Virus record (IMG/VR): IMGVR_UViG_3300045988_118235
Direction: 5' to 3' (one strand)
Length of the DNA: 13,303 bases
From: a virus
Positions 1 through 13,303 of this stretch are shown piece by piece. The translations under genes and the position numbers were made by a program. Below the pieces are notes generated by a model, which saw only the letters and a list, made by a program, of their open reading frames with translations, ran no database searches and had not been told where the DNA came from. The first letter of the stretch is position 1. The number at the start of each line of letters is the position of its first letter.

Positions 1-35
1 AAATATAAATACCCCCCCCTGCTAGATGGGAATTA
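1..35. repeat. Left inverted terminal repeat (35 bp) and presumed protein-primed replication origin
   Basis: Bases 1-35 (AAATATAAATACCCCCCCCTGCTAGATGGGAATTA) are the exact reverse complement of 13269-13303. The terminus starts with AAA and reiterates AAATA at positions 1-5 and 7-11. It contains a C8 run that is unusual in this AT-rich genome. A TTTGAAAA block follows both copies at slightly different offsets, so the ITR may extend imperfectly. Confidence 0.9.
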
Positions 36-116
36 AATTTGAAAATGTAAAGAGATTGTAAATATTATAATTATATACTTGACTTTTATAAGACTTTATG
101 AACTAAACATAATAAT

Positions 117-173
117 AAATTACTACTAATATAGTACTAGTTAACAATTACTAACTACTAAATTACTACTAAT
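117..173. repeat. TACTA-rich repeat array between the left ITR and the first promoter. It includes a 14-bp direct repeat, AAATTACTACTAAT, present twice.
   Basis: AAATTACTACTAAT occurs at 117-130 and 160-173. The spacer (TAGTACTAGTTAACAATTACTAACTACTA) contains further TACTA/TTACTAA units and the small palindromes AGTACT, ACTAGT and GTTAAC. The region is non-coding. Confidence 0.6.
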
Positions 174-233
174 TTAAAACTTTCTAAAAATATTAAAATT
201 ATTGTTGACAATTCCAAAAATATTATATATAAT
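174..233 (+). promoter_or_regulatory. Early promoter P1 (sigma-A/sigma-70 type) with an AT-rich UP-like element
   Basis: -35 TTGACA at 205-210, a 17-nt spacer, and -10 TATAAT at 228-233. The upstream A/T tract is AAAAATATTAAAATTATTG. The whole block recurs almost identically at 544-604. Confidence 0.8.
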
Positions 234-264
234 GTTGTTGTCAATAAAGAAGGGAGAAAAATTT

Positions 265-516
265 ATGACACAAAATCAATTGAAAACATTACAAGACTGC
301 ATGAAAGATTTAGAAAATGTAACACAAGAAGAACAGGGAATTTATTACAGCGATTTATTAAGCGTTTTAGTTACAAACGTTGAAAAGATTAGTTATATTA
401 AATTTACTAAAAAAGTTGAACAAGCTATAAGAATTTATATAGTTAGTATTATAGCTAATAAAGATATTGATTATCGTATTAAAAATGAATTGCTAGTCAC
501 GTTTTTAAAATTCTAA
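265..516 (+). CDS. Hypothetical early protein (83 aa)
   Basis: ATG at 265 lies 8 nt after the GGGAG SD (252-256). The ORF-track start at 202 is rejected because it would run through the promoter. The stop is TAA. No motif was recognised. Confidence 0.75.
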   Translation: MTQNQLKTLQDCMKDLENVTQEEQGIYYSDLLSVLVTNVEKISYIKFTKKVEQAIRIYIVSIIANKDIDYRIKNELLVTFLKF

Positions 517-543
517 TTATAAATAGGTTAGGGGATTTATAAA

Positions 544-604
544 TTAAAACTTTTCTAAAAATATTAAAATTATTGTTGACATTTCTAAAAATATTATATA
601 TAAT
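544..604 (+). promoter_or_regulatory. Early promoter P2, a duplicate of P1
   Basis: -35 TTGACA at 576-581, a 17-nt spacer, and -10 TATAAT at 599-604. It differs from the 174-233 block by one T insertion and two substitutions. A conserved leader, TGTCAATAAAGAA, follows both promoters. Confidence 0.8.
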
Positions 605-636
605 AAGCGTGTCAATAAAGAAAGCGAGGAAATTTT

Positions 637-852
637 ATGACATTACAAGATTTTACAAAAGTTAAATACAACAAAAAAATGAAAGAAATAGCTAATATTT
701 TGCTAAGAATGGACGAAGCGGGCAATATAATAGACTTATCAGATTGCTACGGTCGTGCCTCAATTTTTAAAAGATTAGCATATAAAGAGTGTTTAGATTT
801 TTACCAATATTTAAAAAAGAAAAAAATTTGCGATATAATGAATATACTTTAA
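637..852 (+). CDS. Hypothetical early protein, zero-frame part (71 aa). The frame appears interrupted at an A-run.
   Basis: ATG at 637 follows a GAGGA SD (626-630). The ORF ends at TAA 850-852 shortly after AAAAAAGAAAAAAA (813-826). The -1 frame stays open from that run to 959. Confidence 0.75.
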   Translation: MTLQDFTKVKYNKKMKEIANILLRMDEAGNIIDLSDCYGRASIFKRLAYKECLDFYQYLKKKKICDIMNIL

Positions 853-959
853 TGCAAATAATTAGCTATAATATTAATCAATTTACAGTTGCTTTTATTT
901 TTGGCAATGAATTGTATTATATCACAAAAAATAAAAAATCATATTGTGAAATAGCCTAA
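852..959 (+). CDS. Segment in the -1 frame that probably continues the 637 gene, through a frameshift or an indel in the homopolymer run
   Basis: The -1 frame is open from 708 to TAA 957-959. Shifting at 813-819 gives ...YQYLKKEKNLRYNEYTLMQIISYNINQFTVAFIFGNELYYITKNKKSYCEIA, a fusion of 107 aa. An ATG at 852 overlaps the upstream stop (TAATG), but it has no SD of its own. Confidence 0.4.
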   Translation: MQIISYNINQFTVAFIFGNELYYITKNKKSYCEIA

Positions 960-979
960 TAAAGAAGCGTTAAAATATT

Positions 980-1144
980 ATGATAAATTTAACATTTAAA
1001 GATTTAATAAATTACTTGCGCGAAAAGCCTATAAAATGTATATATTTAAAAGATTACTTCTTAGAAAAAACAAAACATTTTAATAACATTCTTGCGCTTA
1101 TAAAATATATTCAAAATATCTATTTTGCTAAAATATTTATATAA
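980..1144 (+). CDS. Small hypothetical protein (54 aa), a short member of the small-protein paralog family. It is absent from the supplied ORF track.
   Basis: The ORF runs from ATG 980 to TAA 1142-1144 and translates as MINLTFKDLINYLREKPIKCIYLKDYFLEKTKHFNNILALIKYIQNIYFAKIFI. Its 25-nt leader, AATAAAGAAGCGTTAAAATATTATG, is homologous to the leaders of the genes at 265 and 637, but the SD is degenerate. The protein shares the IYL...FNN...I.YI.QN.Y pattern with the ORF at 1547. Confidence 0.45.
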   Translation: MINLTFKDLINYLREKPIKCIYLKDYFLEKTKHFNNILALIKYIQNIYFAKIFI

Positions 1145-1209
1145 CATTGAATGGTTAAATAGTATAGAAGATAGTATTTTAATAGGTGCTATATTTAAGG
1201 GTAATAAAT

Positions 1210-1542
1210 ATGATAACCGAGATTAATTTTAAAAATTTTAAGAAAGTGAGGAATATAAAAATGACTATTAAAAAAGAACGAGTAGAACAAGCAATGTTAC
1301 AATTCCAAATTGATTTATTACGAACAAGCACGGAACAATATCATGAATTAAAAGAACTACAAAAAGAAATAAAACAATTAAGCGAGACAGACGATACACA
1401 ACGCAAAACTATTAAGGAACTAAGAAGTATTCTTAAGCGATTTATTAGATATATTAACTATACAAAAGACCCAATATTGAATAGATTTGTTAATGAGTTA
1501 ATTAAAGAATATGGTCCTTTCTTCTTAGGTCTTGGAGATTAA
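1210..1542 (+). CDS. Hypothetical coiled-coil early protein
   Basis: The start is ambiguous. ATG 1210 lies 9 nt after AAGGG, and ATG 1261 lies 8 nt after GAGGA (1248-1252). The GTG at 1186 given in the track is less likely. The sequence is charged and heptad-like (ELKELQKEIKQLSETDD). Confidence 0.6.
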   Translation: MITEINFKNFKKVRNIKMTIKKERVEQAMLQFQIDLLRTSTEQYHELKELQKEIKQLSETDDTQRKTIKELRSILKRFIRYINYTKDPILNRFVNELIKEYGPFFLGLGD

Positions 1543-1546
1543 TAAT

Positions 1547-1759
1547 ATGAATTTAGAAGACGTTATTAAAGAATTAAATTGTGGTTTTTATATAATTCAT
1601 AAAATATATCTATACCCTGATAAATTAAGTGATAAATATATTAAATTTAATAATTTTAATGATTTTATAGACTACATACTACAAAATAATTACGATAAAA
1701 AAAGATTTTGTACATTTTTTAATGTACTTGAACTCTCAATGAGCATAGGTATATTATGA
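1547..1759 (+). CDS. Small hypothetical protein (70 aa), paralog family member
   Basis: ATG 1547 lies 9 nt after GGAG (1534-1537) and is preferred over the TTG at 1532. It carries the motif KIYL-x11-FNNFNDFIDYILQNNY...RF..F, which is shared with the ORF at 2090. The stop TGA lies within an ATGA overlap with the next gene. Confidence 0.65.
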   Translation: MNLEDVIKELNCGFYIIHKIYLYPDKLSDKYIKFNNFNDFIDYILQNNYDKKRFCTFFNVLELSMSIGIL

Positions 1760-2088
1760 CAATAAAATGCGCTGATTTTTGGTTAATTCGTGACAAAATC
1801 GATAAATCACCTAAGTTATATTTAGACGTCGTGGGCGAATATTATTTAGAGCACGTTACGACCGCATATTATTTTGAGAATGATATAGCTTATTATTATG
1901 ATAAGCATATGGTTAAATGGCATTTAGTAGATTTAAGACTACACCGGATTATTTTAACGGCTAAAAATAAAGAAGCCGTTTTACAACTAGCGCACGCAAC
2001 GCGCACAAGAATAAAAGAATATAGAAAACAAAACGAATATATTTACATGTGGCAAGAGTCACAAGAGATTTTAAGGGGGTTACAATAG
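1756..2088 (+). CDS. Hypothetical protein (110 aa)
   Basis: The ATGA overlap with the upstream gene suggests translational coupling. The segment YYFENDIAYYYD weakly resembles the paralog motif. Confidence 0.65.
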   Translation: MTIKCADFWLIRDKIDKSPKLYLDVVGEYYLEHVTTAYYFENDIAYYYDKHMVKWHLVDLRLHRIILTAKNKEAVLQLAHATRTRIKEYRKQNEYIYMWQESQEILRGLQ

Positions 2089-2089
2089 C

Positions 2090-2362
2090 ATGAAATATAC
2101 CACACTAATAAAAAATATTAAAAAGCGTAAGTTGTGGGATACTATTATATACGTTGAAAACGCTGGCAATTATAGAAGAGTATGTCATTTTTATTATTGG
2201 CAAGACTTTGAGGATTATATAAAAGCATACTATCAAAATCAAGAAAGATTTGTAGATTTTTCTCTAACTTATATTAGAAAAAGAAAAGAGCTACATATTT
2301 GGGGTAAAACACCATTTTATATCAAAAAGGAAGGGGGTATTTTATGGGTGAAAAAGAACTAA
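2090..2362 (+). CDS. Small hypothetical protein (90 aa), paralog family member
   Basis: ATG 2090 follows an AAGGGGG SD. The motif IIYV-x11-FYYWQDFEDYIKAYYQNQERFVDF aligns by eye with the ORF at 1547. Confidence 0.65.
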   Translation: MKYTTLIKNIKKRKLWDTIIYVENAGNYRRVCHFYYWQDFEDYIKAYYQNQERFVDFSLTYIRKRKELHIWGKTPFYIKKEGGILWVKKN

Positions 2363-2577
2363 AAGATACAAAAGAAAAATTAGAATTTTTAGAAAGAATG
2401 AACGACTCAAAAGAGTATAAAATAAAAAAATACGAATATTTAATAATACAATTAAACGAGCTTTTAATTAATAGTACTGATATGACACAAATAGATATAT
2501 TTAATGCCTTAGTTGGAAGTAGTGCAATTATATTAAATGACATATTAGATACTTTAGATTTAAATCTAGACTATTAA
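2344..2577 (+). CDS. Hypothetical protein (77 aa)
   Basis: ATG 2344 follows a GGAAGGGGG SD. It overlaps the upstream gene by 19 nt. Confidence 0.6.
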   Translation: MGEKELKDTKEKLEFLERMNDSKEYKIKKYEYLIIQLNELLINSTDMTQIDIFNALVGSSAIILNDILDTLDLNLDY

Positions 2578-2635
2578 ATTGCTTCTCATTCAAATTAACA
2601 TATATTAAAAGAGAAAGAAAGGAGGTTAATTTATT

Positions 2636-3088
2636 ATGAGATTAAAACTTACATTTAACATCAACACAAAGGAGGTGACCTACGAAGACGGGGGCAAAAA
2701 GAAAACTTTTAAAAGCTATTACACTTATTTAAAAGTACCATTTGAAGCACCTGAGGGCGAAGAGGTACCATTTAATTTACATTTTAGACAAGATTGTGAA
2801 AACGCTTACGGTCGTGATTTAAACGGGGTTGTTACCGCTATTGTGGATGTACCTTGGTACGTTGTAGTTAAAAAAGGCAAAACTGAAGATTACACAAAAA
2901 GAGCTTTAGAATTACAAAATGAACTACGTACTAAAGAAAGATTTGATAACATTTGGGTTCATAAAATCTTAGAATACAAACCATTTGAAAAGAAAGAAGA
3001 AAACGACGACGATTTATTAGAATTTGACGTGACAAAAAAGACTAAAGACGTTGAAAACATTAAACCAACCGACGATTTACCATTTTAA
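2636..3088 (+). CDS. Putative single-stranded DNA-binding protein (150 aa) with an acidic C-terminal tail ending in DDLPF
   Basis: The SD is very strong (AAAGGAGG). The N-terminal two thirds look beta-rich. The tail is acidic (EKKEENDDDLLEFD...TDDLPF) and its last residues resemble the bacterial SSB tip DDDIPF. The gene sits in the replication module upstream of the TP and polymerase genes. Confidence 0.45.
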   Translation: MRLKLTFNINTKEVTYEDGGKKKTFKSYYTYLKVPFEAPEGEEVPFNLHFRQDCENAYGRDLNGVVTAIVDVPWYVVVKKGKTEDYTKRALELQNELRTKERFDNIWVHKILEYKPFEKKEENDDDLLEFDVTKKTKDVENIKPTDDLPF

Positions 3089-3100
3089 GGAGATAATAAA

Positions 3101-3364
3101 ATGACAAAAGATATTAATATAACCGATTTTTTCACATATTTTGTAGTCAATTACAAGAAAGATACTAAATATATGGTTTATTTACTAGTATATGGAGGGG
3201 GCAAACTATATATTAATAACGATTTAACCTTTACATATGAACAACCTAATAAAATGAGTTTAATCGGTGTGCTTACTTTATTTGAAGAAATAATTCAATG
3301 CGATTGCGAGAATTTATTAGACATTCTTTATATAAAGGAGGTAAATAATGAAAAAGATTTGTAG
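3101..3364 (+). CDS. Hypothetical protein (87 aa)
   Basis: ATG 3101 lies 8 nt after AGGAG. No motif was recognised. Confidence 0.6.
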   Translation: MTKDINITDFFTYFVVNYKKDTKYMVYLLVYGGGKLYINNDLTFTYEQPNKMSLIGVLTLFEEIIQCDCENLLDILYIKEVNNEKDL

Positions 3365-3614
3365 TGAAGCTTTACAAAAATTTTTAGATACTATACTTCT
3401 TGAAAAAGATAATAGATACTATATTAAATTTATTGGTGAAGAAAAGTATTTATATATATCAAATATATATATAATTGGTAGTTTCGACCGAAAAGTAGAT
3501 ATACATAGCACACCATCGTACTTATATTACTGGGAGGTATTATATATTCTTAATATAATCAAAAAATATGGGGAACAAGAAGAAATAACTAATATAGAAA
3601 TAGGAAAATTTTAA
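3348..3614 (+). CDS. Hypothetical protein (88 aa)
   Basis: ATG 3348 lies 6 nt after GGAGG. It overlaps the upstream gene by 17 nt and shows possible weak similarity to the ORF at 3101. Confidence 0.6.
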   Translation: MKKICSEALQKFLDTILLEKDNRYYIKFIGEEKYLYISNIYIIGSFDRKVDIHSTPSYLYYWEVLYILNIIKKYGEQEEITNIEIGKF

Positions 3615-3616
3615 TT

Positions 3617-4381
3617 ATGCCAAAGAGACTTAAATTAAATTTATCTTACAATGATTTAAATAAAATGTCTCTTGCCGATTTAAAAACCTACGCTATAAAG
3701 CTTAACAATGTTGCAAACTTGAGAGTAAGAAAGCTTAGACAATTTGTGCCTTACTCTCCAGCGTTGTTATCTTATGAAAAAAGCGAATTAGGAACTTTTA
3801 GAATTGGTAAAGAGGCGGATATTAATAGTTTACGTAGAAGTGTTGCAAGAGCTAAACACTTTTTAGACATGGAGACTAGTACGGTTAAAGGTACTATAAA
3901 TGTTACATTACGGACTTTAAAGCGCTTTGGTATAGAGCCTCCCGATTTTAGCAAGAAAGAAAAAAGACCACGAGGGCGACCAAAAGGTTCAAAAAATAAC
4001 AAGAATAAGATTAAAGAAATAAAAGAAAAAAGACCAAGAGGGAGACCAAAAGGCTCAAAAAATAAAAATGCCTATAGTAAATATACCGAGACTATTAAGT
4101 GGTTGTATTCAAAGAGAGAATTATTAAAAGAGTTCTTTGACTTGTATAATAGATACAAAGATTTATATCATGGCGGAGAATTGCCAAGCGATACTATTAA
4201 AGTAGGTATGGATGTATTTTTAGACCTTAAAAACAATTTACTTCAAAAAGTCGGTGACGATTGGATAAATAGAGAAACGGGCGAAATAGTAGACCGAGAA
4301 CAAATTTTTTTTGATATTATGAACCAAAAAATAGAGAGAATGCACGACTATATTTATAGTTCTTACAATCAATATAACTAA
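3617..4381 (+). CDS. Putative terminal protein (protein primer, 254 aa) carrying two tandem AT-hook motifs
   Basis: It lies immediately upstream of the protein-primed DNA polymerase gene with a 2-nt gap, as phi29 gene 3 precedes gene 2. Its size is close to the 266 aa of phi29 TP. The genome has ITRs. KEKRPRGRPKGSKN occurs twice, at aa 114-127 (nt 3956-3997) and aa 136-149 (nt 4022-4063). Confidence 0.5.
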   Translation: MPKRLKLNLSYNDLNKMSLADLKTYAIKLNNVANLRVRKLRQFVPYSPALLSYEKSELGTFRIGKEADINSLRRSVARAKHFLDMETSTVKGTINVTLRTLKRFGIEPPDFSKKEKRPRGRPKGSKNNKNKIKEIKEKRPRGRPKGSKNKNAYSKYTETIKWLYSKRELLKEFFDLYNRYKDLYHGGELPSDTIKVGMDVFLDLKNNLLQKVGDDWINRETGEIVDREQIFFDIMNQKIERMHDYIYSSYNQYN

Positions 4382-4383
4382 AT

Positions 4384-6471
4384 ATGAAACAATGCAATAC
4401 GATTAAGGAGTGTTTAGCCAATGTAAAAAGCTTTAAAGTTTACAAAAAACAATATAGAAATAAATACTTTAATAATCGTATTTGCTTTGATATTGAGGTA
4501 TCTAGTTTCTATGTTGAGGGTATAGAAAAAGAGCCGGTTAAAAGAGCATGTTGTTACGCTTATATTTTGGGTATTGATGGTAACTATAAGATAGGTAGGA
4601 GCTTAGTTGAATTTGTAAAAGATATTAATTATCTTGAGTATGTTTTGCATAAAAAAGACCCTGAGGCGCATATAGTAGTTTGGGTTCATAACTTAGCCTA
4701 CGAGTTCCAATTTATAAGAAAGTATTTTGAAATTAAAGAAATTTTAGCTAACGACGAGAGAAAAATTATATACGCAGTTACTCAAAATAATATTGAATTT
4801 AGATGTAGTTACATGCTAAGTGGTTATTCTTTACGTAAAGTTGGAGAAAATCTAAGACACCATAACGCTAAAAAGATGGTAGGTGATTTAGACTATTCTT
4901 TGTTGAGAGGTTCAACAACTCCACTAACTGAGAAAGAAATAGGATATATTAGAGAAGACTACGAGGTATTAGACGCATACATTGAAGAAGAGTTAGAAAC
5001 TTATTTATATATATCTAGAGTACCATATACCAAAACTGGCAAAGTAAGAAAGTTTTGTCGTAAAGTTTGTAATGAAAAAGGTAACTATAAAAAAAGATAT
5101 ATTAAAAATTTAGTTATCAATGACGCTCAAGAGTATATGTTAATGCGTCGCGCTTTCATGGGAGGCTTTACACATGCTAACTCATTGGCTGTTAATAACT
5201 TAATTAGAGATGTAACATCTATCGACTTTACTAGCTCTTATCCCGCCGTTATGGTGAGTGAGATGTTCCCTATGAGTCGAGGTCAATTAATAGAGATTAA
5301 ATCTTTAGACCAAATAAAAGAATTATCTAAAAGAAACTGTCTTATATTTGATATAGAGTTTTGGAATTTAGAAAGTACTTTTATTTATGAGTCCTATTTG
5401 TCAAGTTCACATGGTATAACTGAGGGAGCTACTACAATTAACAATGGTAGAATAGTTATGACTAAATATTTAAAAACTACAATAACTAACATAGATTTAG
5501 ATATAATAGAGAAAGTTTATAAATGGACTAAATGTAAAATAGGTTTGTGCTACATTTATAAGAAATGGTACCTCCCTACTCCATTTGTAAAAAGTATCTT
5601 AATGTTATATAAAGACAAAACAACTTTAAAAGGTATTGACGACAAGATAGCCGAATACATGAACTCAAAAGAAATGTTAAACTCTTGTTATGGTATGACT
5701 GTTACCGATATTATTAAACCCGAGGTGGAATATGACGACGAGAAGGGATGGCATACCGAAGAAATGACACTCGATAAACGAGGAGATTTAGTAGAAAAGT
5801 ATAACAATCAGCGTTCGAGGTTTTTATTCTATCCATGGGGTGTATTTATCACAGCGTATGCAAGGCGAAACTTGTGGTCGGGTATTTTAGAATTTGGAGA
5901 AGATTATTGTTATAGCGATACCGACTCAATCAAAGGAATTAATTATGAAAAACACAAGAATTATGTTGATAAATACAACGATATATGTTATCATAAATTA
6001 GAGGTAGCAATGAGTTATCATAAACTTGATATATCATTGTGCGCTCCAACAACTATAAAAGGAGAAAAGAAAATCATAGGCGTTTGGGATTATGACGGTC
6101 ATTACGATATGTTCAAAACTTTAGGAGCTAAGCGCTATATGGTATATAACAACAAAGGATTAACATTAACTATATCAGGAGTTAATAAAACAAAGGCAGT
6201 ACCTTATTTACTCAAAAAGTATGAAAACGACATACAACAAATATTTGATAGTTTTAGTGATGGATTTGAGGTACCCTCACCGCATGCTGGCAAGCAAATT
6301 CTTACATATATTGACTACGAAACGAGCGGAGAGTTTATGGACTATTTAGGCAAGAAACAAACGTATCATGAGTTGAGCTCGGTACATATGGAAGAGGGAA
6401 GCTATACATTGACAATGAGTGACGAGTACTTAAAATTCTTAGCGGAAGGAGTGAAGATAGATTATGTCTAA
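4384..6471 (+). CDS. Family B DNA polymerase of the protein-primed (phi29 gp2-like) type, 695 aa
   Basis: Exo I is FDIE (D36, E38). Exo II is HNLAYEF (aa 102-108). Exo III is YIREDYEV. Motif A is DFTSSYP. Motif B is KEMLNSCYG. Motif C is YSDTDS (nt 5911-5928). The KxY motif is GAKRYM. Long inserts between the motifs are consistent with TPR1 and TPR2. Confidence 0.95.
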   Translation: MKQCNTIKECLANVKSFKVYKKQYRNKYFNNRICFDIEVSSFYVEGIEKEPVKRACCYAYILGIDGNYKIGRSLVEFVKDINYLEYVLHKKDPEAHIVVWVHNLAYEFQFIRKYFEIKEILANDERKIIYAVTQNNIEFRCSYMLSGYSLRKVGENLRHHNAKKMVGDLDYSLLRGSTTPLTEKEIGYIREDYEVLDAYIEEELETYLYISRVPYTKTGKVRKFCRKVCNEKGNYKKRYIKNLVINDAQEYMLMRRAFMGGFTHANSLAVNNLIRDVTSIDFTSSYPAVMVSEMFPMSRGQLIEIKSLDQIKELSKRNCLIFDIEFWNLESTFIYESYLSSSHGITEGATTINNGRIVMTKYLKTTITNIDLDIIEKVYKWTKCKIGLCYIYKKWYLPTPFVKSILMLYKDKTTLKGIDDKIAEYMNSKEMLNSCYGMTVTDIIKPEVEYDDEKGWHTEEMTLDKRGDLVEKYNNQRSRFLFYPWGVFITAYARRNLWSGILEFGEDYCYSDTDSIKGINYEKHKNYVDKYNDICYHKLEVAMSYHKLDISLCAPTTIKGEKKIIGVWDYDGHYDMFKTLGAKRYMVYNNKGLTLTISGVNKTKAVPYLLKKYENDIQQIFDSFSDGFEVPSPHAGKQILTYIDYETSGEFMDYLGKKQTYHELSSVHMEEGSYTLTMSDEYLKFLAEGVKIDYV
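6409..6436 (+). promoter_or_regulatory. Candidate internal promoter upstream of the packaging and virion genes
   Basis: TTGACA at 6409-6414, a 16-nt spacer, and TAAAAT at 6431-6436, lying 28 nt before the ATPase start. It sits inside the polymerase coding sequence and could be a chance match in AT-rich DNA. Confidence 0.3.
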
Positions 6472-7561
6472 AGAAGAACATTATAGATTAGATAAAATAC
6501 TAGCACATAAAGCACAATATTATATGATTATCGGTGAGCGTTCTAATGGCAAGACTTATGCTATCTTAGAACACTGTTTAAAGGAATATGTTAAAAGCGG
6601 ATACAAGAACGAATTTTGTATCTTGAGACGTTGGCAAGACGACTTTAAACCTAAAAATTCAATGCAAATGTTCGCGGGTCATATTCAAAATGGTGTAATA
6701 ACTAGACTCACAAAGGGAGAATTTAACTCGGTATCTTATTTAGGTGGTCGTTGGTATCTAGCATTTGTCGACGAGCACGGAGCTACAACAAAGAAAATGC
6801 AAACACCTTTTTGCTATGGTTTTGCTCTTAATGATCAAGAACACATTAAATCAATCTCATTCCCTAATATTAAAAATATTTTCTTTGACGAGTTCTTATC
6901 TAGTAATTATTATCTACCTGATGAGTTTGTTATCTTTATGAACGTATTATCAACTATTATTCGTTTGCGTAACGACGTTACTATTTTTATGGCAGGTAAT
7001 ACAATCAACCCTTATGCACCATACTTTAATGAAATGGGATTAAAACATGTTAAGAACATGAAAAAAGGTGAGATTGAGGTATATACTTATGGAGATAGTG
7101 GACTTAAAGTAGCAGTTGAATTCTCGGACTACTACGGTAAAAAGAAGAGTAACATTTATTTTGCTTTTGACAATCCTAAACTAACTATGATTACAGGTGT
7201 TGGGGGTACTTGGGAGATAGCCATCTACCCTCACCTACCTTGTAAATATAAGCCAAAAGAAATATTATTTACTTATTTTATTTTATTCGACAACGAGATA
7301 TTCCAATGTGAAATCGTTTCAACAAACGATATGACGTTCACATACATACACCGTAAGACGGGAGAGTTGAAAGACAAGGGGGATTTAATATTCGACCTTG
7401 TACCAAACGGGAAGCATAACTATGTTACTAACATCTATAGTTCGGGTAGTCCTGTAGTAAATGTGATTTTATCCTTTTTCAAACTGAGTAAGGTTTTTTA
7501 TCAAGACAATACGGTAGGTGAGTCTATAAGAAACTATTTACAAGTTTGTATGAGAGGCTAA
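6464..7561 (+). CDS. DNA packaging (encapsidation) ATPase, phi29 gp16-like, 365 aa
   Basis: Walker A is GERSNGKT (aa 24-31, nt 6533-6556). Walker B is NIFFDEF. The size and the position next to the structural genes fit the small-podovirus packaging ATPase. Confidence 0.85.
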   Translation: MSKEEHYRLDKILAHKAQYYMIIGERSNGKTYAILEHCLKEYVKSGYKNEFCILRRWQDDFKPKNSMQMFAGHIQNGVITRLTKGEFNSVSYLGGRWYLAFVDEHGATTKKMQTPFCYGFALNDQEHIKSISFPNIKNIFFDEFLSSNYYLPDEFVIFMNVLSTIIRLRNDVTIFMAGNTINPYAPYFNEMGLKHVKNMKKGEIEVYTYGDSGLKVAVEFSDYYGKKKSNIYFAFDNPKLTMITGVGGTWEIAIYPHLPCKYKPKEILFTYFILFDNEIFQCEIVSTNDMTFTYIHRKTGELKDKGDLIFDLVPNGKHNYVTNIYSSGSPVVNVILSFFKLSKVFYQDNTVGESIRNYLQVCMRG

Positions 7562-7619
7562 AATAGAAAGGAGGTATATCAAAATAAATACCACTTTAGA
7601 GAATATTGTAGATAGCTCC

Positions 7620-7859
7620 TTGATAGTCTTAACAGGAGCAGTGGGACTACAACAAATCGAGTCTATTATTGGAATTATTAGTGTGTCTTTATCAGTGTTA
7701 TGGATATTATTCAAGTTCGCTTTTAAAATGTACCAAGCTCTTAAGAATAAAGACTATAGCAACTTAGGGAATGACATTAATAAGACTAAAGAAGAACTCG
7801 AGAAGATTAAAGAAGACTTAGAAAGCAGGAGAGAAAATGGCGGACAAGATACCAAATAG
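7620..7859 (+). CDS. Small membrane protein with one clear TM helix and a charged coiled C-terminus. It is a possible holin-like protein. The true start may be upstream, at 7584.
   Basis: The TM segment is IIGIISVSLSVLWILFKFAF, followed by KTKEELEKIKEDLESRRE. The TTG at 7620 has no SD. A strong AAAGGAGG (7567-7574) lies 9 nt before an in-frame ATA at 7584. Confidence 0.55.
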   Translation: MIVLTGAVGLQQIESIIGIISVSLSVLWILFKFAFKMYQALKNKDYSNLGNDINKTKEELEKIKEDLESRRENGGQDTK

Positions 7860-8850
7860 GCAAGATTGGAGTTATGAAAAATTATTAGGTTGTGATAGAA
7901 ACCCATTGAAAGACAAAGAGCGCTTAGTATGGCAACACAAAAGTTACATGTTATCACGTCTTAATCAGTTGTTTGAATGGGACGGCTTACCAGAGACAAT
8001 ACCACAAAAAGAGTTTGAATGGATATTATTAATGCAGGGCAAAGCAACTATTGCCGACGTACCTAACAAAGGCTTATATGCTTTTCAATCCAACTTAGGA
8101 GGTATCTTGAACCCTTACTACTTACCTACTCAGTCAATTGTAGTCAATCCTTACTTACCATTTAACAAGGTACTTGAGGTTGGTAAAGATTGTGTTGTAA
8201 TTCGTAACACTTCAACATTTACTCCTATTAATGATATGTTAGATTTATACGCTAACATGCTAGCCGAGATTGATATATCTTTAAGAATTGCTACCGTTAA
8301 TAGTCGTATTAGTTCTCTTATATCCGTAGGAGACGAAGCGACCAAAGATAGTGCTACGAAGTTCTTAGAAGACATAGAAAAAGGCAAGCTAGGAGTTATA
8401 GCTACTAACAAATTCATGGAGAGTCTTAAAGGGGGTCTTAATGCAATTCAATACGCAGGTACTATTAGTAACATTCAAGACCTCATAGAATTAAGGCAGT
8501 ACATCTTAGCTACGTGGTTTAACCAACTTGGCTTAAACGCTAACTACAATATGAAACGTGAAGCTATCAATGAGAGCGAGGCTGATTTAAACGAAGAGGC
8601 TTTAATGCCATTGATAGACGATATGTTGCAATGTAGACAAGAGGGAGCCAAGAAAGTTAATGCTATGTTTGGTACTAATCTTAGTGTTAAACTCAACTCT
8701 TCATGGAAGCTCCAAAGAAAAGAAATAGAAACATCTATGGAACTTGCCGAGAAAGAATTAAATACCGAAGAAAACGAAGAAACACAAGAAGAGGGAGGAA
8801 GTAAGGAAGAACCAACCGAAGACAAGGAGAAAGAAAATGATAACGATTAA
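7837..8850 (+). CDS. Portal / upper collar (connector) protein, phi29 gp10-like, 337 aa
   Basis: The N-terminal pattern ...LNQLFEWDGLPETIPQKEFEWILLMQGKA... is typical of small-podovirus connectors as I recall them. The C-terminal tail is acidic. The size is close to the 309 aa of gp10, and the gene sits in the virion module. Confidence 0.75.
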   Translation: MADKIPNRQDWSYEKLLGCDRNPLKDKERLVWQHKSYMLSRLNQLFEWDGLPETIPQKEFEWILLMQGKATIADVPNKGLYAFQSNLGGILNPYYLPTQSIVVNPYLPFNKVLEVGKDCVVIRNTSTFTPINDMLDLYANMLAEIDISLRIATVNSRISSLISVGDEATKDSATKFLEDIEKGKLGVIATNKFMESLKGGLNAIQYAGTISNIQDLIELRQYILATWFNQLGLNANYNMKREAINESEADLNEEALMPLIDDMLQCRQEGAKKVNAMFGTNLSVKLNSSWKLQRKEIETSMELAEKELNTEENEETQEEGGSKEEPTEDKEKENDND

Positions 8851-9616
8851 AGATTATTTTGAACCATTAATGCTGGACAATAACGAGGAAATAACCGGAA
8901 TATTTAGTACACTTGAAATATTAGCAGTAAAAGAACAAATGAAACCTGATGAGATTTTAACAAAAATCTTTGATGGTAAAGGTGTTATGCTTGATCTAGA
9001 CTATGTCTATACACACGCTTATACAAAATGGATAGCTTTAGTACTAGAGAGAACAACAGAATTAGTCAAAACTCAACACCCATCTATTAGCGACAGTAGG
9101 GCAAAAGTAAATGTATTAACAGCATATATCGCACCGTTATTGTTAAATCGTTTCTCCGAGATTTGGAAGAAAAAGTATGTAGCTATTACCGCCGATTACA
9201 CTCCAACAAACGACTACAAAGAGAATGAGAAAGTTGATTACACTTCCCACGGTGTTGATACTCCTCAAACTACTACTACATCTAAAACGAGTACTGATAC
9301 TACTCAGTCAACTAGTGTAACTCAAAATGCTAATACATATGCTTTTGATAGTATAAGTGAGACTCCTACAGCTCTCAACACAGGCGACCAAAGTGTCAAT
9401 AGTACAGGTGCTCCTGATAAAAACTATACTGAGACCACTACGGGTGGAACCAATACAAGTGATGTCAACAGCACTAACACAATCACTAGAGAGGGTAAAC
9501 ACGGCTCAACCGACTATAGTGTATTAATTGAAAACGAGCTTAAACTACGTGAATACGATTTTTATCAAGAGATGTTCAAAGATATTGATAGTATATTAAC
9601 GTTATCAATTTATTAG
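8837..9616 (+). CDS. Putative lower collar / head-tail adaptor protein (259 aa) with a central Ser/Thr/Asn-rich low-complexity region
   Basis: It directly follows the portal gene, as phi29 gp11 follows gp10. AAGGAG lies 7 nt before the ATG. The central region is TPQTTTTSKTSTDTTQSTSVTQ...TETTTGGTNTSDVNSTNT. The functional call rests on synteny and a remembered C-terminal pattern (E..LR......F.DI...L...IY). Confidence 0.4.
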   Translation: MITIKDYFEPLMLDNNEEITGIFSTLEILAVKEQMKPDEILTKIFDGKGVMLDLDYVYTHAYTKWIALVLERTTELVKTQHPSISDSRAKVNVLTAYIAPLLLNRFSEIWKKKYVAITADYTPTNDYKENEKVDYTSHGVDTPQTTTTSKTSTDTTQSTSVTQNANTYAFDSISETPTALNTGDQSVNSTGAPDKNYTETTTGGTNTSDVNSTNTITREGKHGSTDYSVLIENELKLREYDFYQEMFKDIDSILTLSIY

Positions 9617-9632
9617 AAAGGAGGACACAAAA

Positions 9633-9896
9633 TTGTACGTAGGAGGATATTTATTAATCAACTTGCCTTTTGAAGCTAAGGCAGGTACACATACCGTAAA
9701 AGGTATTTATGAAAAGTTAGAAAGTAACTTATACAAAGCAACTAGAATTAGCGGTTTATATAACACCGTTGGTCAAATCAGTGATTTTTATACAACTTTT
9801 ATATTAACCACTGGTAATTATTTAGCAAAAGTTGAAAGTACCGTAGGAATTAATACTATTACAATTAAACCAACCGACGAGGTAGTATTCGCATGA
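9633..9896 (+). CDS. Hypothetical virion-module protein (87 aa) that looks beta-rich
   Basis: The TTG start at 9633 lies 6 nt after AAAGGAGGA (9618-9626). The gene sits immediately upstream of the capsid gene. Its function is unknown, and decoration or assembly factor are possibilities. Confidence 0.55.
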   Translation: MYVGGYLLINLPFEAKAGTHTVKGIYEKLESNLYKATRISGLYNTVGQISDFYTTFILTTGNYLAKVESTVGINTITIKPTDEVVFA

Positions 9897-9961
9897 CAGG
9901 TGGAATAATTGAGATTACTATACCTCAGGAATTATGGGAAAATACTATAACTTATTTATAA
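9893..9961 (+). CDS. Possible 22-aa micro-ORF (MTGGIIEITIPQELWENTITYL)
   Basis: ATG 9893 overlaps the upstream TGA in an ATGA junction, the same coupling arrangement seen at 1756 and 11420. No other support was found. Confidence 0.2.
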   Translation: MTGGIIEITIPQELWENTITYL

Positions 9962-9996
9962 AAGCGTAAATTTGAAAGGAGGAATATATATTTTAA

Positions 9997-11142
9997 ATGA
10001 CAGTAAAACAAATTTATGAATTAGTAAATGCAAGTACAAAACAAGTATTAGGAGAAACTGCTATCCTTACTGAGGATTTAGCCAATGTTGTTGATATTGG
10101 TACTGAAATCTTTAACGCTAACGCAGTAGATAACTATGTCAAAACATTAGTTGATAGAATCGGTAGAGTTATCTTTGTTAATAGACCTTATAGTGGTTCT
10201 ATTCCATCCGTTTTAATGGACTCATGGGAGTATGGCTCGGTCACTGAAAAGATACAAATGGATTTGCCTGAAGCCGAAGTAAATGAAACTTGGGAATTAA
10301 AAGACGGAGCTACATATGACCAAAACTTCTTCTATCAACCAAAAATCTCGGTTAAGTTCTTTAACCAAATGGTTACATTTGAAGTTCCAATGTCAATTAC
10401 TGAAAGACAAGTTCAAGAAAGCTTTACTTCCGCTCAAGCATTAGGAAGCTTCATTGGTATGATTTGGACAATGATTGAAAACTCTATGACCGTTAAGTTA
10501 GACAGTTTAATCTTAATGACAATCAACAATATGATTAGCTTAACTGACTCAGTTAACGGAGGTGGAGACGCTCAACACGTTCACTTATTAACCGAATACA
10601 AAGCTCTCAATCCTGACTTTACAAAAACAGGCGAGTCCGCAATGACCGACTTAGACTTCTTAAAATATTGTGCATACCGAATTAAACTTGTTGCAGGTCG
10701 TATGACACAATACTCAAAAGTCTTCAACGCTGAAAAGAAATCAAGACATACACCTAAAGACTTAATGCACATTGTATTATTATCCGACTTTAAGAACGCG
10801 GCTGATGTATACTTACAATCCGATACATTCCACAACGAACTCTCAGCTCTTCCAAATAGTGAAAGTGTTCAATATTGGCAAGGTAGTGGAGATGAAACCG
10901 AAGCATTCACATTCGCTAATACATCCAAGATTAATATCAAGGACGCTAAGGGCAATACATATACTAAGGCTAATATCATTGGCGTTATCTTTGATAGAAA
11001 CGCTTTAGGTGTTACTAAGAAGAACACTCGCATTCGCTCACACGTTGTTGATAAAGCTGAGTTCTACAACTATTGGTATAAAGCTGATGTTGGATACTTC
11101 AACGATTTAAGTGAAAACTTTGTTTGCTTCTTAATTGATTAG
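9997..11142 (+). CDS. Major capsid protein (381 aa)
   Basis: An AGGAGG SD lies upstream and an intrinsic terminator lies immediately downstream, as expected for the most abundant late product. The size and the N-terminal pattern (VLGETAILTEDLANVVDIGTEI...VDNYVKTLVDRIGRVIF) resemble small-podovirus HK97-fold capsid proteins as I recall them. Confidence 0.75.
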   Translation: MTVKQIYELVNASTKQVLGETAILTEDLANVVDIGTEIFNANAVDNYVKTLVDRIGRVIFVNRPYSGSIPSVLMDSWEYGSVTEKIQMDLPEAEVNETWELKDGATYDQNFFYQPKISVKFFNQMVTFEVPMSITERQVQESFTSAQALGSFIGMIWTMIENSMTVKLDSLILMTINNMISLTDSVNGGGDAQHVHLLTEYKALNPDFTKTGESAMTDLDFLKYCAYRIKLVAGRMTQYSKVFNAEKKSRHTPKDLMHIVLLSDFKNAADVYLQSDTFHNELSALPNSESVQYWQGSGDETEAFTFANTSKINIKDAKGNTYTKANIIGVIFDRNALGVTKKNTRIRSHVVDKAEFYNYWYKADVGYFNDLSENFVCFLID

Positions 11143-11150
11143 TTGAATTA

Positions 11151-11180
11151 GGGGGTATAGAAATATACCTCCTTTTCTTT
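11151..11180 (+). terminator. Rho-independent terminator after the capsid gene
   Basis: The stem pairs GGGGGTATA (11151-11159) with TATACCTCC (11164-11172), giving 9 bp with one G-U pair. The loop is GAAA and the tail is TTTTCTTT. It is probably partial, since the tail gene downstream has no obvious promoter of its own. Confidence 0.75.
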
Positions 11181-11201
11181 AAATAGAAGAAAGGAGAAAA
11201 T

Positions 11202-11423
11202 ATGAAATTAAAAGAAGTCTTAAAATTAATTAACAATGAATTTATTAATTATACTATATACCGTGATAAAAAAGTTGTTGCTCACTTTTCTACAAGATAT
11301 CAAAAAGAAGTAGAAGAGATATCAAGACGATACGGACACTATAACGTTACAAATATTGGAGCTTTCATGACATGTGATTATGAGAGCGTTGTAACACTAA
11401 CACTTGAGGAAGTATTGTTATGA
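11202..11423 (+). CDS. Hypothetical protein (73 aa)
   Basis: ATG 11202 follows an AAAGGAG SD. It joins the tail knob gene through an ATGA overlap. Confidence 0.6.
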   Translation: MKLKEVLKLINNEFINYTIYRDKKVVAHFSTRYQKEVEEISRRYGHYNVTNIGAFMTCDYESVVTLTLEEVLL

Positions 11424-13222
11424 AGATAACTTTATTCCAAAATGTCAGTGAACGCAACCAAATGGACAAGGATTTAACTAAAGTTAAAGATATTGACGGC
11501 AAGTTCAAACAATCCACTAATATTATGAGTCCTATATTAGTATTGAGTTATGCAACACTTCCCGATTTTAATTATATATATATTGAAGAATTAGCTAGAT
11601 ATTATTTTGTTGACAGTATCACAAGTATTAACGAGGGGTTATGGCAAATCAATTGTAGTGAGGATGTATTAGAGACTTACGGTACGGCAATTTTAAATCT
11701 TAGTGCTTATGTGACAAGAAATGAATATGAGTATAATGATTATATAGAAGATAAATATTTATTAAGAACTGCTAGAAAATTATATGATATTATAGAGCCT
11801 TTAGACCTAGACGATGGACATAACTTGTTTATGAATTTTGACTCATTCGATACTAGTAATTCTCATGACGGAGCACCTTATAATATATCTAGTGAAACAA
11901 GAGCATTTTGTTATACAATCTCTACAGCTAATAAATGGGGTGGTAGAGATGTAACTGATACTACAATCTCATCGGGTCATAGACTTGATATTATGGAAGC
12001 TTATACTGATTTTAATGATACAAACTCAAAGTATGGTATAAACAAGTACGGTAAAGCTTTTTATGGCGACTCATTTACTAAAATATGGGCAATGAATAAT
12101 ACTAATATTCAATCTTTAGGCTCTTTATTAGAAGCTGAAATGAACTCTCCAATAGGTGATAAAAGAATGTATCAAAACGTTGGTTCAATGATTAACGTTA
12201 TACGTGTATATCCTTTTTCAATACCTGAATACTATAAATATTGTGGTATTAGTGAGTCGAGATTACCTCAAGGCAACTTCCCACCTTGGATAGAAGATCC
12301 TTTAGGAGACTCAAGAAATATAGATGTTGTAACGGTTGGAGATAGTCCTATACCAAACACTATAACCGACCAAAAAAATACAATAACTCAATATCCATAC
12401 AGTTATTATCAAATAACAGGTTGGGTATTACCTCAACAAGCTATGAGTTGTAAAATAGCAACATTCCCTTTTGACAATACTAACATATTATACAATAACT
12501 ATTTGGACTTCTCACCATATACCGTATTACACTTATATGTCCCATTCTTTGGATATATCGACTTATCACCAAACATTTGTGTTGGGACTCAAGTAAATGT
12601 TTATCTATCAGTTGATTTTAATTCAGGGAACGCCACAATATATGTTACATCTAAGATTAAAGAACAAGAAACATTAATAACAACAAAACAAACAAGTATA
12701 GGATTTGACTTAGCATTTGGTGTTTCTAACATAGCTGAATTAAACCGTTCTACTAAATACACTAGTATAAAAGAAACAATAAAAACCGTAGCAGGTACTT
12801 TAGCTACTTTTGCGTCAATGACCGCTTTTGCTACAGGACATATAGGAGCGGGTAAAATGTTTGCGGTCGCAGGTGGTACTGCAATAGCAGGTGTTAATAG
12901 CGCTATAAATGTTGCTCAATCCGAGAGTATGCCCATTAATGCTACAGCTATAGATGGTGGTGGAAGTGAAAACGGAGCTTCTAACTTTATAGCTCCAAAA
13001 GGAATATTTGTTCTTAGAGAAAGAGTAGAACAATATAGACCTGCTTCTAATTATTCTAAATTCTTAGGTAGACCGCTAGAGGTACAAAGGAGAATAGGTA
13101 AATTACATGGCTTTACTCAAGTTGGTAGCATACACATTGAGGGAACTGATTTTGTTAAAGCTACTGAACAAGAAAAACAATTAATAGAAGATACTTTAAA
13201 AAATGGTTTTATAATCAGGTGA
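11420..13222 (+). CDS. Tail knob / distal tail tube protein, phi29 gp9-like, 600 aa
   Basis: The length nearly equals the 599 aa of phi29 gp9. The conserved-looking N-terminus is MKITLFQNVSERNQMDKDL...FNYIYIEELARYYFVDSI. An Ala/Gly-rich hydrophobic segment at aa 457-499 sits at the same relative position as the membrane-active gp9 loop. Confidence 0.65.
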   Translation: MKITLFQNVSERNQMDKDLTKVKDIDGKFKQSTNIMSPILVLSYATLPDFNYIYIEELARYYFVDSITSINEGLWQINCSEDVLETYGTAILNLSAYVTRNEYEYNDYIEDKYLLRTARKLYDIIEPLDLDDGHNLFMNFDSFDTSNSHDGAPYNISSETRAFCYTISTANKWGGRDVTDTTISSGHRLDIMEAYTDFNDTNSKYGINKYGKAFYGDSFTKIWAMNNTNIQSLGSLLEAEMNSPIGDKRMYQNVGSMINVIRVYPFSIPEYYKYCGISESRLPQGNFPPWIEDPLGDSRNIDVVTVGDSPIPNTITDQKNTITQYPYSYYQITGWVLPQQAMSCKIATFPFDNTNILYNNYLDFSPYTVLHLYVPFFGYIDLSPNICVGTQVNVYLSVDFNSGNATIYVTSKIKEQETLITTKQTSIGFDLAFGVSNIAELNRSTKYTSIKETIKTVAGTLATFASMTAFATGHIGAGKMFAVAGGTAIAGVNSAINVAQSESMPINATAIDGGGSENGASNFIAPKGIFVLRERVEQYRPASNYSKFLGRPLEVQRRIGKLHGFTQVGSIHIEGTDFVKATEQEKQLIEDTLKNGFIIR

Positions 13223-13226
13223 TTAT

Positions 13227-13258
13227 AGCTCATGGGATTTACTCTCATGGGCTTTTTT
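13227..13258 (+). terminator. Rho-independent terminator at the end of the single transcription direction
   Basis: The stem pairs GCTCATG (13228-13234) with CATGGGC (13246-13252), giving 7 bp with one G-U pair. The loop is 11 nt and is followed by T6 (13253-13258). Confidence 0.6.
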
Positions 13259-13268
13259 CAAATATAAA

Positions 13269-13303
13269 TAATTCCCATCTAGCAGGGGGGGGTATTTATA
13301 TTT
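13269..13303. repeat. Right inverted terminal repeat (35 bp)
   Basis: It is the exact reverse complement of bases 1-35. Confidence 0.9.

Follow-up and report, generated by a model that had tools for sequence, protein, structure and literature searches.

Nearly all tailed phages are considered to encode an endolysin. The IMG/VR virus record IMGVR_UViG_3300045988_118235, a stretch of 13,303 nt that is referred to here at its full length as the window, with positions counted from its first base, carries phi29-like replication, packaging and structural genes and no recognizable gene for a peptidoglycan hydrolase or a fiber, and it raises the question of how such a phage enters and leaves its host. 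The window is probably the complete genome of a phi29-like podophage that belongs to a recurrent human-fecal clade, has lost its lysin, adsorbs through its tail knob, and exits by way of a holin-like protein.

The two terminal arms of the window were 100% complementary and formed an exact 35-bp inverted terminal repeat (ITR), as follows.

1..35, no strand: left ITR, AAATATAAATACCCCCCCCTGCTAGATGGGAATTA
13269..13303, no strand: right ITR

The left ITR begins with AAA, as in phi29, and contains a C8 tract; the AAA start is compatible with sliding-back protein-primed initiation. The first base of the ENA contig L058, which is 99.98% identical to the window, was window base 1. The IMG/VR contig L039 (12,602 bp) was a second complete clade genome with a homologous ITR on both ends (AAATATCCAAACCCCCCCCC...), contig L008 had a homologous terminus, its final base corresponding to the window end, and both L039 and L008 stopped at the position homologous to the right ITR. 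The longest contig among the 45 variants of one clade protein was 13,437 bp. The window termini are the true ends of a complete linear genome, as had been proposed in a preliminary description made from the sequence alone. The C8/G8 homopolymer in the ITRs (12-19 and 13285-13292) was the exact point at which most short-read assemblies of the relatives break, so many public contigs of the clade are without the last 10 to 20 bases.

It is highly improbable that the contig represents something less than a functional genome, be it a fragment, a chimera, or a derivative made defective by deletion. Compared with the 94%-identical L004, the window has a deletion of roughly 530 bp, which would fit a defective derivative and which truncates the following gene.

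9893..9961, + strand: 22-codon gene remnant, MTGGIIEITIPQELWENTITYL and a stop, with the breakpoint at 9947/9948

The intact gene, at 7948-8553 of L004, encodes 201 aa; L036 and L038 also have it at this length, whereas in most other members the product is about 95 aa. However, at least four samples or assemblies independent of one another yielded near-identical genomes (99.8 to 99.98%) with the identical deletion, and the termini were independently reproduced. The 201-aa gene appears to be dispensable, because most relatives also have a version shortened to about 95 aa; the intact protein had no Pfam, PHROG, or PDB match. Across the clade population, this orphan gene just 5' of the major capsid protein (MCP) gene occurred in three truncation states. 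Near-identical genomes were present in several samples (99.7 to 99.98%), and the record names of two of them, ZEEV15 and ZELL14, we take to denote human gut cohorts.

No window protein matched a peptidoglycan hydrolase, fiber, or spike family in Pfam, PHROGs, or NCBIfam, and neither were clear lysin or fiber homologs found by these searches among the small open reading frames (ORFs). The preliminary description, which had noted no recognizable endolysin, tail-tip hydrolase, fiber, or appendage gene, was thus borne out by searches whose controls were positive. The genome holds no unassigned core ORF longer than 150 aa and no noncoding gap roomy enough for a lysin gene, and only a terminator and the ITR lie 3' of the stop codon of the last gene, that of the knob.

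11420..13222, + strand: single-chain gp9-type tail knob, 600 aa, assigned by structure model and Foldseek
13227..13253, + strand: terminator-like hairpin 3' of the knob gene, with no gene between knob and ITR

The absence extended to the at least 45 variants of the clade, in which no peptidoglycan hydrolase, fiber, or spike was detected. For the clade, precomputed Pfam fields were consulted, and they were empty for all knob alleles, collar homologs, and variants of the 150-aa protein p150 and, on six clade contigs, for each gene outside the core. As a positive control, lysins were sought in 127 unlabeled proteins from relatives outside the clade, and these proteins matched CW_7, CHAP, ELLD, GH25, Amidase_2/3/5, Phage_lysozyme, Glucosaminidase, Peptidase_M15, and NlpC/P60. 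The gene after the knob gene encoded a canonical modular endolysin in 10 of the 10 nearest non-clade relatives tested, mostly with CW_7 wall-binding repeats, and the cultured control AD70P2, an Amedibacillus phage, encoded a CHAP protein and a spike-like Beta_helix protein. The negative result carries weight, since lysins of relatives were found with ease by the same method. In a rough neighbor-joining tree of the MCPs, which has no support values, the clade was nested among lysin-bearing lineages, and the lysin absence is for that reason best read as a loss on the clade stem. Judged from these sequence comparisons, the absence looks real, clade-wide, and derived. A literature search turned up no description of lysin-less phi29-like gut phages. 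The lack of fiber and spike genes, in contrast, has already been reported for the Astrithrvirus group (PMC11476376), so the missing fiber is a known trait of this branch and not novel.

A hydrolase, a receptor-binding protein, or both might still be encoded but be so divergent or so small as to escape recognition, with the early orphans, the middle of the knob, and the collar protein as candidates; we consider such a detection failure possible but doubtful. About 11 ORFs of 50 to 150 aa had zero family matches in Pfam, PHROGs, and NCBIfam, residues 140 to 330 of the knob were modeled with a predicted local distance difference test score (pLDDT) of <50, the modeling of p150 failed, and tail-associated lysins are common in phi29-like phages (PMC11476376). 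On the other hand, the lysins of relatives were all trivially detectable, and the unassigned ORFs of the clade core were at most 110 aa, small for known muralytic domains, except for p150. The latter sits in the replication block and has an acidic tail like that of a single-stranded DNA-binding protein (SSB), and Foldseek on the knob returned knob proteins only, with no hydrolase-type match.

Because of its length, p150 (2636-3088) was examined both as a hidden lysin and as an SSB. This orphan ends in DDLPF, resembling the acidic/aromatic C-terminal tip of bacterial SSB, and it is tentatively considered an SSB. Its AlphaFold2 model had a pLDDT of 44, Foldseek gave nothing significant (only non-significant matches to the PriB OB-fold), and a PDB profile search gave no match. 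An exhaustive hidden Markov model (HMM) search of 1.84 billion representatives recovered only two remote relatives, one of which ends in NDFVF. Neither identity gained support from the model, Foldseek, PDB profile, or HMM searches.

The gene most readily connected with exit lies between the packaging ATPase and portal genes.

7584..7859, + strand: holin-like small membrane protein, about 91 aa from ATA 7584; the minimal ORF, 7620-7859 from TTG, encodes 79 aa

This ORF was conserved and was left uncalled by gene finders in every relative, appearing as a 276-nt "gap"; it was also overlooked in the preliminary description, as was the gene remnant at 9893-9961. An invariant GGAGG lies 9 nt 5' of the in-frame ATA at 7584 and the TTG at 7620 has no ribosome-binding site (RBS), so the noncanonical ATA is the probable start. 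The ORF showed a coding substitution pattern, with codon-position counts of 13/5/19. The N-terminal half of the product contains the only strong hydrophobic segment of the proteome, and its C terminus is charged. The product matched phrog_1009, a family of function not known (E value of 2e-5), and its positional equivalents in astrithr and Phanie matched the holin family phrog_4898. Size, hydrophobic segment, charged tail, position, and these weak PHROG matches together suggest a holin-like protein.

For entry, the knob is the best candidate. It had no sequence-family match. An AlphaFold model built from 17 homologs (pLDDT of 61) matched the phi29 gp9 crystal structures 5fb4/5fb5 with a Foldseek probability of 1.0 (E value of 3e-13) and also matched C1 gp12 and the Andhra knob; among predicted viral structures (BFVD), only podovirus knob or major tail proteins matched. 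On the strength of its predicted structure, the 600-aa protein is confirmed as a full-length phi29 gp9-type tail knob. In astrithr, the homolog of its N terminus is a protein of its own, gp09. From about residue 455 to 500, the knob has a hydrophobic segment rich in Ala and Gly, which was modeled at low confidence and presumably sits at the position of the membrane-insertion loop in the 2016 structure of phi29 gp9.

Within the clade, the knob was 43 to 94% identical, versus 93 to 99% for PolB, ATPase, portal, and MCP, and it fell into at least four allele classes. Residues 1 to 100 were conserved at 80 to 100% and the remainder at 30 to 70%. In genomes about 94% identical elsewhere, nucleotide similarity was lost near 11728 (about codon 103) and came back near 13000-13150; these mosaic boundaries imply that knob cassettes have been exchanged by recombination. 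Since mosaic hypervariability is the usual signature of host-range determinants, the knob is likely to be one, and because no fiber gene is present, it is the best candidate for both receptor recognition and penetration. The hypervariable body of the knob would recognize the cell surface, and its hydrophobic loop would breach the membrane. The earlier suggestion that adsorption may be carried by the knob or collar gains support for the knob, the one hypervariable structural gene of the clade.

In L011, L012, L019, L044, L050, and L053, a small knob-related gene lies 3' of a large one, whereas the Astrithrvirus order is the opposite; the splitting or rearrangement of the knob has thus taken more than one form in the group.

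Taken as a scheme, the clade would have lost its endolysin gene, and exit would use the holin-like protein together with something not visibly encoded or not yet recognizable. The partner might be the host's own autolysins, set off when the membrane is depolarized, or a small effector that escaped recognition; alternatively, the host might have a reduced wall or none. Reliance on a helper is a further way in which a holin-like protein could serve without an endolysin, and the data do not discriminate among these mechanisms. The stronger statement, that this gut clade completes its life cycle without any phage peptidoglycan hydrolase or fibers, with a wall-less host or a single membrane protein sufficing for exit and the knob being the sole device for adsorption and penetration, is tentative, and we would expect it to fail more readily than to hold. 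It includes the possibility that the small membrane protein triggers host autolysis or acts as a single-gene lysis protein.

A host without a peptidoglycan wall, or with a much reduced one, such as uncultured Mollicutes-like Bacilli of the gut that use the standard code, would need only the holin and the knob loop, and it would account for a lysin loss that is clade-wide and derived when a holin-like protein and a hydrophobic-loop knob were kept. The low G+C content (22 to 37%) points the same way, as do the Gram-positive-type lysins (CW_7) of the relatives and the Erysipelotrichaceae host of one cultured relative. The Erysipelotrichaceae lineage is phylogenetically close to Mollicutes. Nevertheless, we regard such a host, which the preliminary description had raised as an alternative, as unlikely: the strong GGAGG RBSs are typical of walled Firmicutes too, the use of TGA as a stop excludes code-4 mycoplasmas only, and no similarity to known Mollicutes phages was found, none of these being among 70 PolB matches.

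Host assignment from the labels of metagenome-assembled genomes (MAGs) that contain relatives was also attempted; the labels (Ruminococcus, Muribaculaceae, Methanobrevibacter, and Vampirovibrio) were mutually inconsistent and were rejected as binning noise. Whole phi29-like genomes of 11 to 14 kb (L010-L030) were present in MAGs labeled Methanobrevibacter, Muribaculaceae, Vampirovibrio, "Ca. Enterousia," and others, and they are evidently mis-binned viral contigs in species-representative genomes.

Dependence on a helper, in which the phage would use the tail of another phage for adsorption and possibly its lysis system for release, is about as improbable as a wall-less host. The model is Phanie, the closest cultured relative by MCP (53%), which is reported to be infectious only when bound to the tail of a helper myophage, a requirement that may extend to fiber-less relatives (PMC11476376). 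The window clade is without fiber and lysin, although a lack of fibers and spikes is not specific to satellites. Phanie, however, still encodes a lysin, and its knob is split and bears Ig-like domains, whereas the clade knob is unsplit and phi29-type with a membrane-loop-like segment.

Several points weigh against the preferred reading, that of a complete lysin-less phage with an adsorbing knob and a holin-like exit protein. The protein encoded at 7584-7859 could be a membrane anchor like phi29 p16.7, and the knob could owe its hypervariability to adaptation not to a host receptor but to, for example, the tail of a helper phage. The knob model is moderate in quality and poor in the variable region, where a small novel enzymatic or binding module is possible. 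The terminal protein and lower-collar assignments described below lack a direct sequence or structure match, the p150 model has a pLDDT of only 44, the MAG bin labels of the relatives are too scattered to be reliable for host assignment, and the neighbor-joining tree of MCPs carries no support values.

The replication genes that accompany this knob and holin-like protein are consistent with a protein-primed genome.

3617..4381, + strand: putative terminal protein (TP), 254 aa, directly 5' of PolB and homologous to same-position proteins in relatives
4384..6471, + strand: protein-primed family B DNA polymerase (PolB), 695 aa (PF03175, E value of 5e-11; phrog_1907, E value of 1e-61)

PolB was 39 to 44% identical to the polymerases of the Astrithrvirus group. 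The 254-aa protein matched no TP family or structure in Pfam, PHROGs, or further direct searches. Homologs occupied the corresponding position in 22 relatives, astrithr gp02 and Phanie 0020 among them, and its position and positional conservation make it a putative TP; the putative TPs of relatives are about 50 aa shorter. A tandem 47-nt repeat in its gene (3956-4002 and 4022-4068) encodes KEKRPRGRPKGSKN twice, and this motif is AT-hook-like, with a weak match to an HMG-I/Y peptide (E value of 0.03). Replication would be protein-primed from the AAA... ends, with the 254-aa protein serving as primer.

The packaging and structural module follows on the same strand.

6464..7561, + strand: gp16-type DNA packaging ATPase, 365 aa (PF05894, E value of 3e-12; phrog_2150, E value of 3e-31)
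7837..8850, + strand: portal/upper collar connector, 337 aa (PF05352, E value of 1e-16; phrog_2038, E value of 2e-38)
8837..9616, + strand: probable lower collar/tail tube protein, 259 aa, always directly 3' of the portal gene and conserved as a family
9633..9896, + strand: 87-aa structural-module protein with a TTG start and a strong RBS
9997..11142, + strand: phi29-type MCP, 381 aa (PF25622, E value of 4e-50)
11150..11173, + strand: terminator-like hairpin 3' of the MCP gene
11202..11423, + strand: 73-aa structural-module protein, no family match

The PF05894, PF05352, and PF25622 matches all exceeded the gathering scores, and the MCP was 47 to 53% identical to those of the Astrithrvirus group. 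The 259-aa protein had no match in the PDB or PHROGs in either single-sequence or profile searches. An alignment of the post-portal family (23 sequences, including astrithr gp07 and Phanie 0070) accompanied its assignment, and from position and conservation it is the probable lower collar. Its N-terminal domain is helical, its middle is rich in Thr and Ser and varies in length, and its C terminus is conserved, so that the family runs from a helical through a Thr-rich to a second helical segment. The Thr/Ser-rich middle ranged from near nil in astrithr and Phanie to about 200 aa of TxTxT-type repeats in L021, and this variation may determine how long a beta-barrel tail tube is. The virion would be minimal, consisting of capsid, portal, lower-collar tube protein, and knob. 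In the gene list of the preliminary description, PolB, ATPase, portal, and capsid were thus corroborated by Pfam and PHROGs and the knob was corroborated by structure, while the TP and the lower collar found indirect support, both through position and family conservation.

The left 3.6 kb contains about 11 small orphan ORFs behind two consensus promoters.

171..264, + strand: 94-nt element, copy 1, with a perfect TTGACA-17-TATAAT (sigma70/sigmaA-type) promoter at 205-233, 5' of the first ORF
265..516, + strand: early ORF 1, an orphan of 83 aa from an ATG with an RBS; the longest ORF reaches 202, and 265-516 is the call on L058
542..635, + strand: 94-nt element, copy 2, with a second perfect consensus promoter at 576-604
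637..3614, + strand: early block of about 10 small orphan ORFs without family matches
637-852, 1186/1261-1542, 1532/1547-1759, 1756-2088, and 2090-2362, + strand: orphan early-block ORFs
2344-2577, 2636-3088, 3101-3364, and 3348-3614, + strand: orphan early-block ORFs, continued

The two direct-repeat copies are 83% identical, match the promoter consensus at 12 of 12 positions each, and precede the first two ORFs; transcription would start from these duplicated promoters. The coding status of 853-1260 is doubtful. ORF 3348-3614 (88 aa) is an insertion confined to the window, its near-identical copies, and L038 (56% identical), and in most clade members an 87-aa ORF is directly followed by the TP gene, with no equivalent of 3348-3614.

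All sizeable ORFs, in a total of roughly 21 genes of which about 6 encode structural proteins, lie on the + strand. The ORFs on the - strand were at most 93 aa and nested in + strand genes, and independent gene calls on near-identical contigs were + throughout, in agreement with the preliminary description. TGA terminates four genes, that of the knob included, so the standard code is used, and genetic code 4 was ruled out. No tRNA genes were found in the window. A search for the prohead RNA (pRNA) gave no Rfam match at E values of ≤1 across the whole window, although a divergent pRNA may escape such a search, and the RNA fold of the left noncoding segment 36-204 (z = -0.75) gave no pRNA signal. 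The pRNA is known only for the Bacillus relatives of phi29.

Among 50,697 deposited phage genomes, there was no nucleotide-level relative and no described phage of close identity; megablast gave one match of 108 bp (1% of the window). The clade itself comprised at least 14 long contigs and at least 45 protein variants, and a search for NCBI names of its proteins found none. More distant relatives came from rumen, rabbit, sheep, horse, and human gut MAG bins. By protein, the nearest cultured phages were those of the Astrithrvirus group (Phanie, astrithr/Astrid, DU_PP_III, Entb_47, and Vibrio K58 g2; 10.4 to 11.9 kb), followed by Amedibacillus phages (12.3 kb). Overall, the clade is closest, with 35 to 53% identity between proteins, to the Astrithrvirus group and to numerous phi29-like genomes of 11 to 14 kb from the gut.

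The size and strand layout stressed in the preliminary description were misplaced as points of emphasis. The genome had been called unusually small, which is refuted: its cultured relatives measure 10.4 to 12.3 kb, and many phi29-like clusters of 12 to 14 kb have been found in a survey of human metagenomes (PMC11476376). The window is in fact larger than its cultured relatives because its early region is expanded. The contrast drawn with the divergent operons of phi29 is correct as to layout and does not mark an unusual trait, for several relatives (L014, L016, L047, L048, L051, and L052) share the one-strand layout and AD70P2 has 14 of 15 genes on one strand.

The Astrithrvirus group, whose members include Salmonella astrithr and Astrid, Acinetobacter Phanie, Pectobacterium DU_PP_III, and Vibrio K58 g2, shares with the window the core order of putative TP, PolB, gp16 ATPase, small membrane protein, portal, collar-like protein, MCP, and knob, as well as the lack of fiber/spike genes and a very small genome. 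Beyond the PolB and MCP identities given above, the ATPases were 47 to 50% and the portals 33 to 37% identical. In contrast to the single 600-aa chain of the window, the Astrithrvirus knob is split into about 146 aa and 386 to 854 aa and is followed by an endolysin, which the window lacks; in that group, the small early genes are encoded on the - strand, at the right end, whereas those of the window occupy 3.4 kb at the left end on the + strand. The window also has a lower G+C content and a gut habitat, versus wastewater isolates on Proteobacteria. In the practice of the International Committee on Taxonomy of Viruses, a genus corresponds to about 70% nucleotide similarity across the genome. 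Membership of the genus Astrithrvirus was rejected, given the single 108-bp megablast match and the lack of a split knob, a post-knob endolysin, and leftward early genes at the right end, as judged against the annotations of Phanie, astrithr, and K58 g2.

With phi29 (Salasmaviridae, on Bacillus), the window has in common ITRs starting with AAA, a protein-primed PolB, a gp16 ATPase, a gp10 connector, a phi29-type MCP, and a gp9-type knob of about 600 aa, likewise unsplit and with a hydrophobic loop region. The phi29 genome, at 19.3 kb, has early and late operons that diverge, compared with 13.3 kb on one strand here. It also encodes pRNA, gp12 appendages, the gp13 tail-tip hydrolase, the gp14 holin, the gp15 endolysin, and the gp8.5 head fiber (PMC11476376 and general knowledge), and among these extra features, only a holin-like ORF was detectable in the window. 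The gut and rumen phi29-like genomes of 11 to 14 kb (L010 and L041-L043) and AD70P2 resemble the window in size, habitat, and core module, several being co-directional, and they differ from it in their endolysins; the published gut clusters 12-14, 17, 20, 25, and 26 are likewise akin in size and habitat (PMC11476376).

The durable interest of the window lies not in its size or strand layout but in the clade-wide, apparently derived absence of a recognizable peptidoglycan hydrolase in a gut phage that is both abundant and minimal in its virion. A well-sampled gut clade without an enzyme that its nearest relatives keep offers a clean comparative system for the entry and exit of minimal phages, and with roughly 21 genes and about 6 structural proteins, the question is experimentally tractable. 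The hypervariable single-chain knob offers a compact model for host-range switching without fibers. If the host were indeed a wall-less gut lineage, the clade would provide a rare handle on the phages of uncultured Mollicutes-like bacteria.

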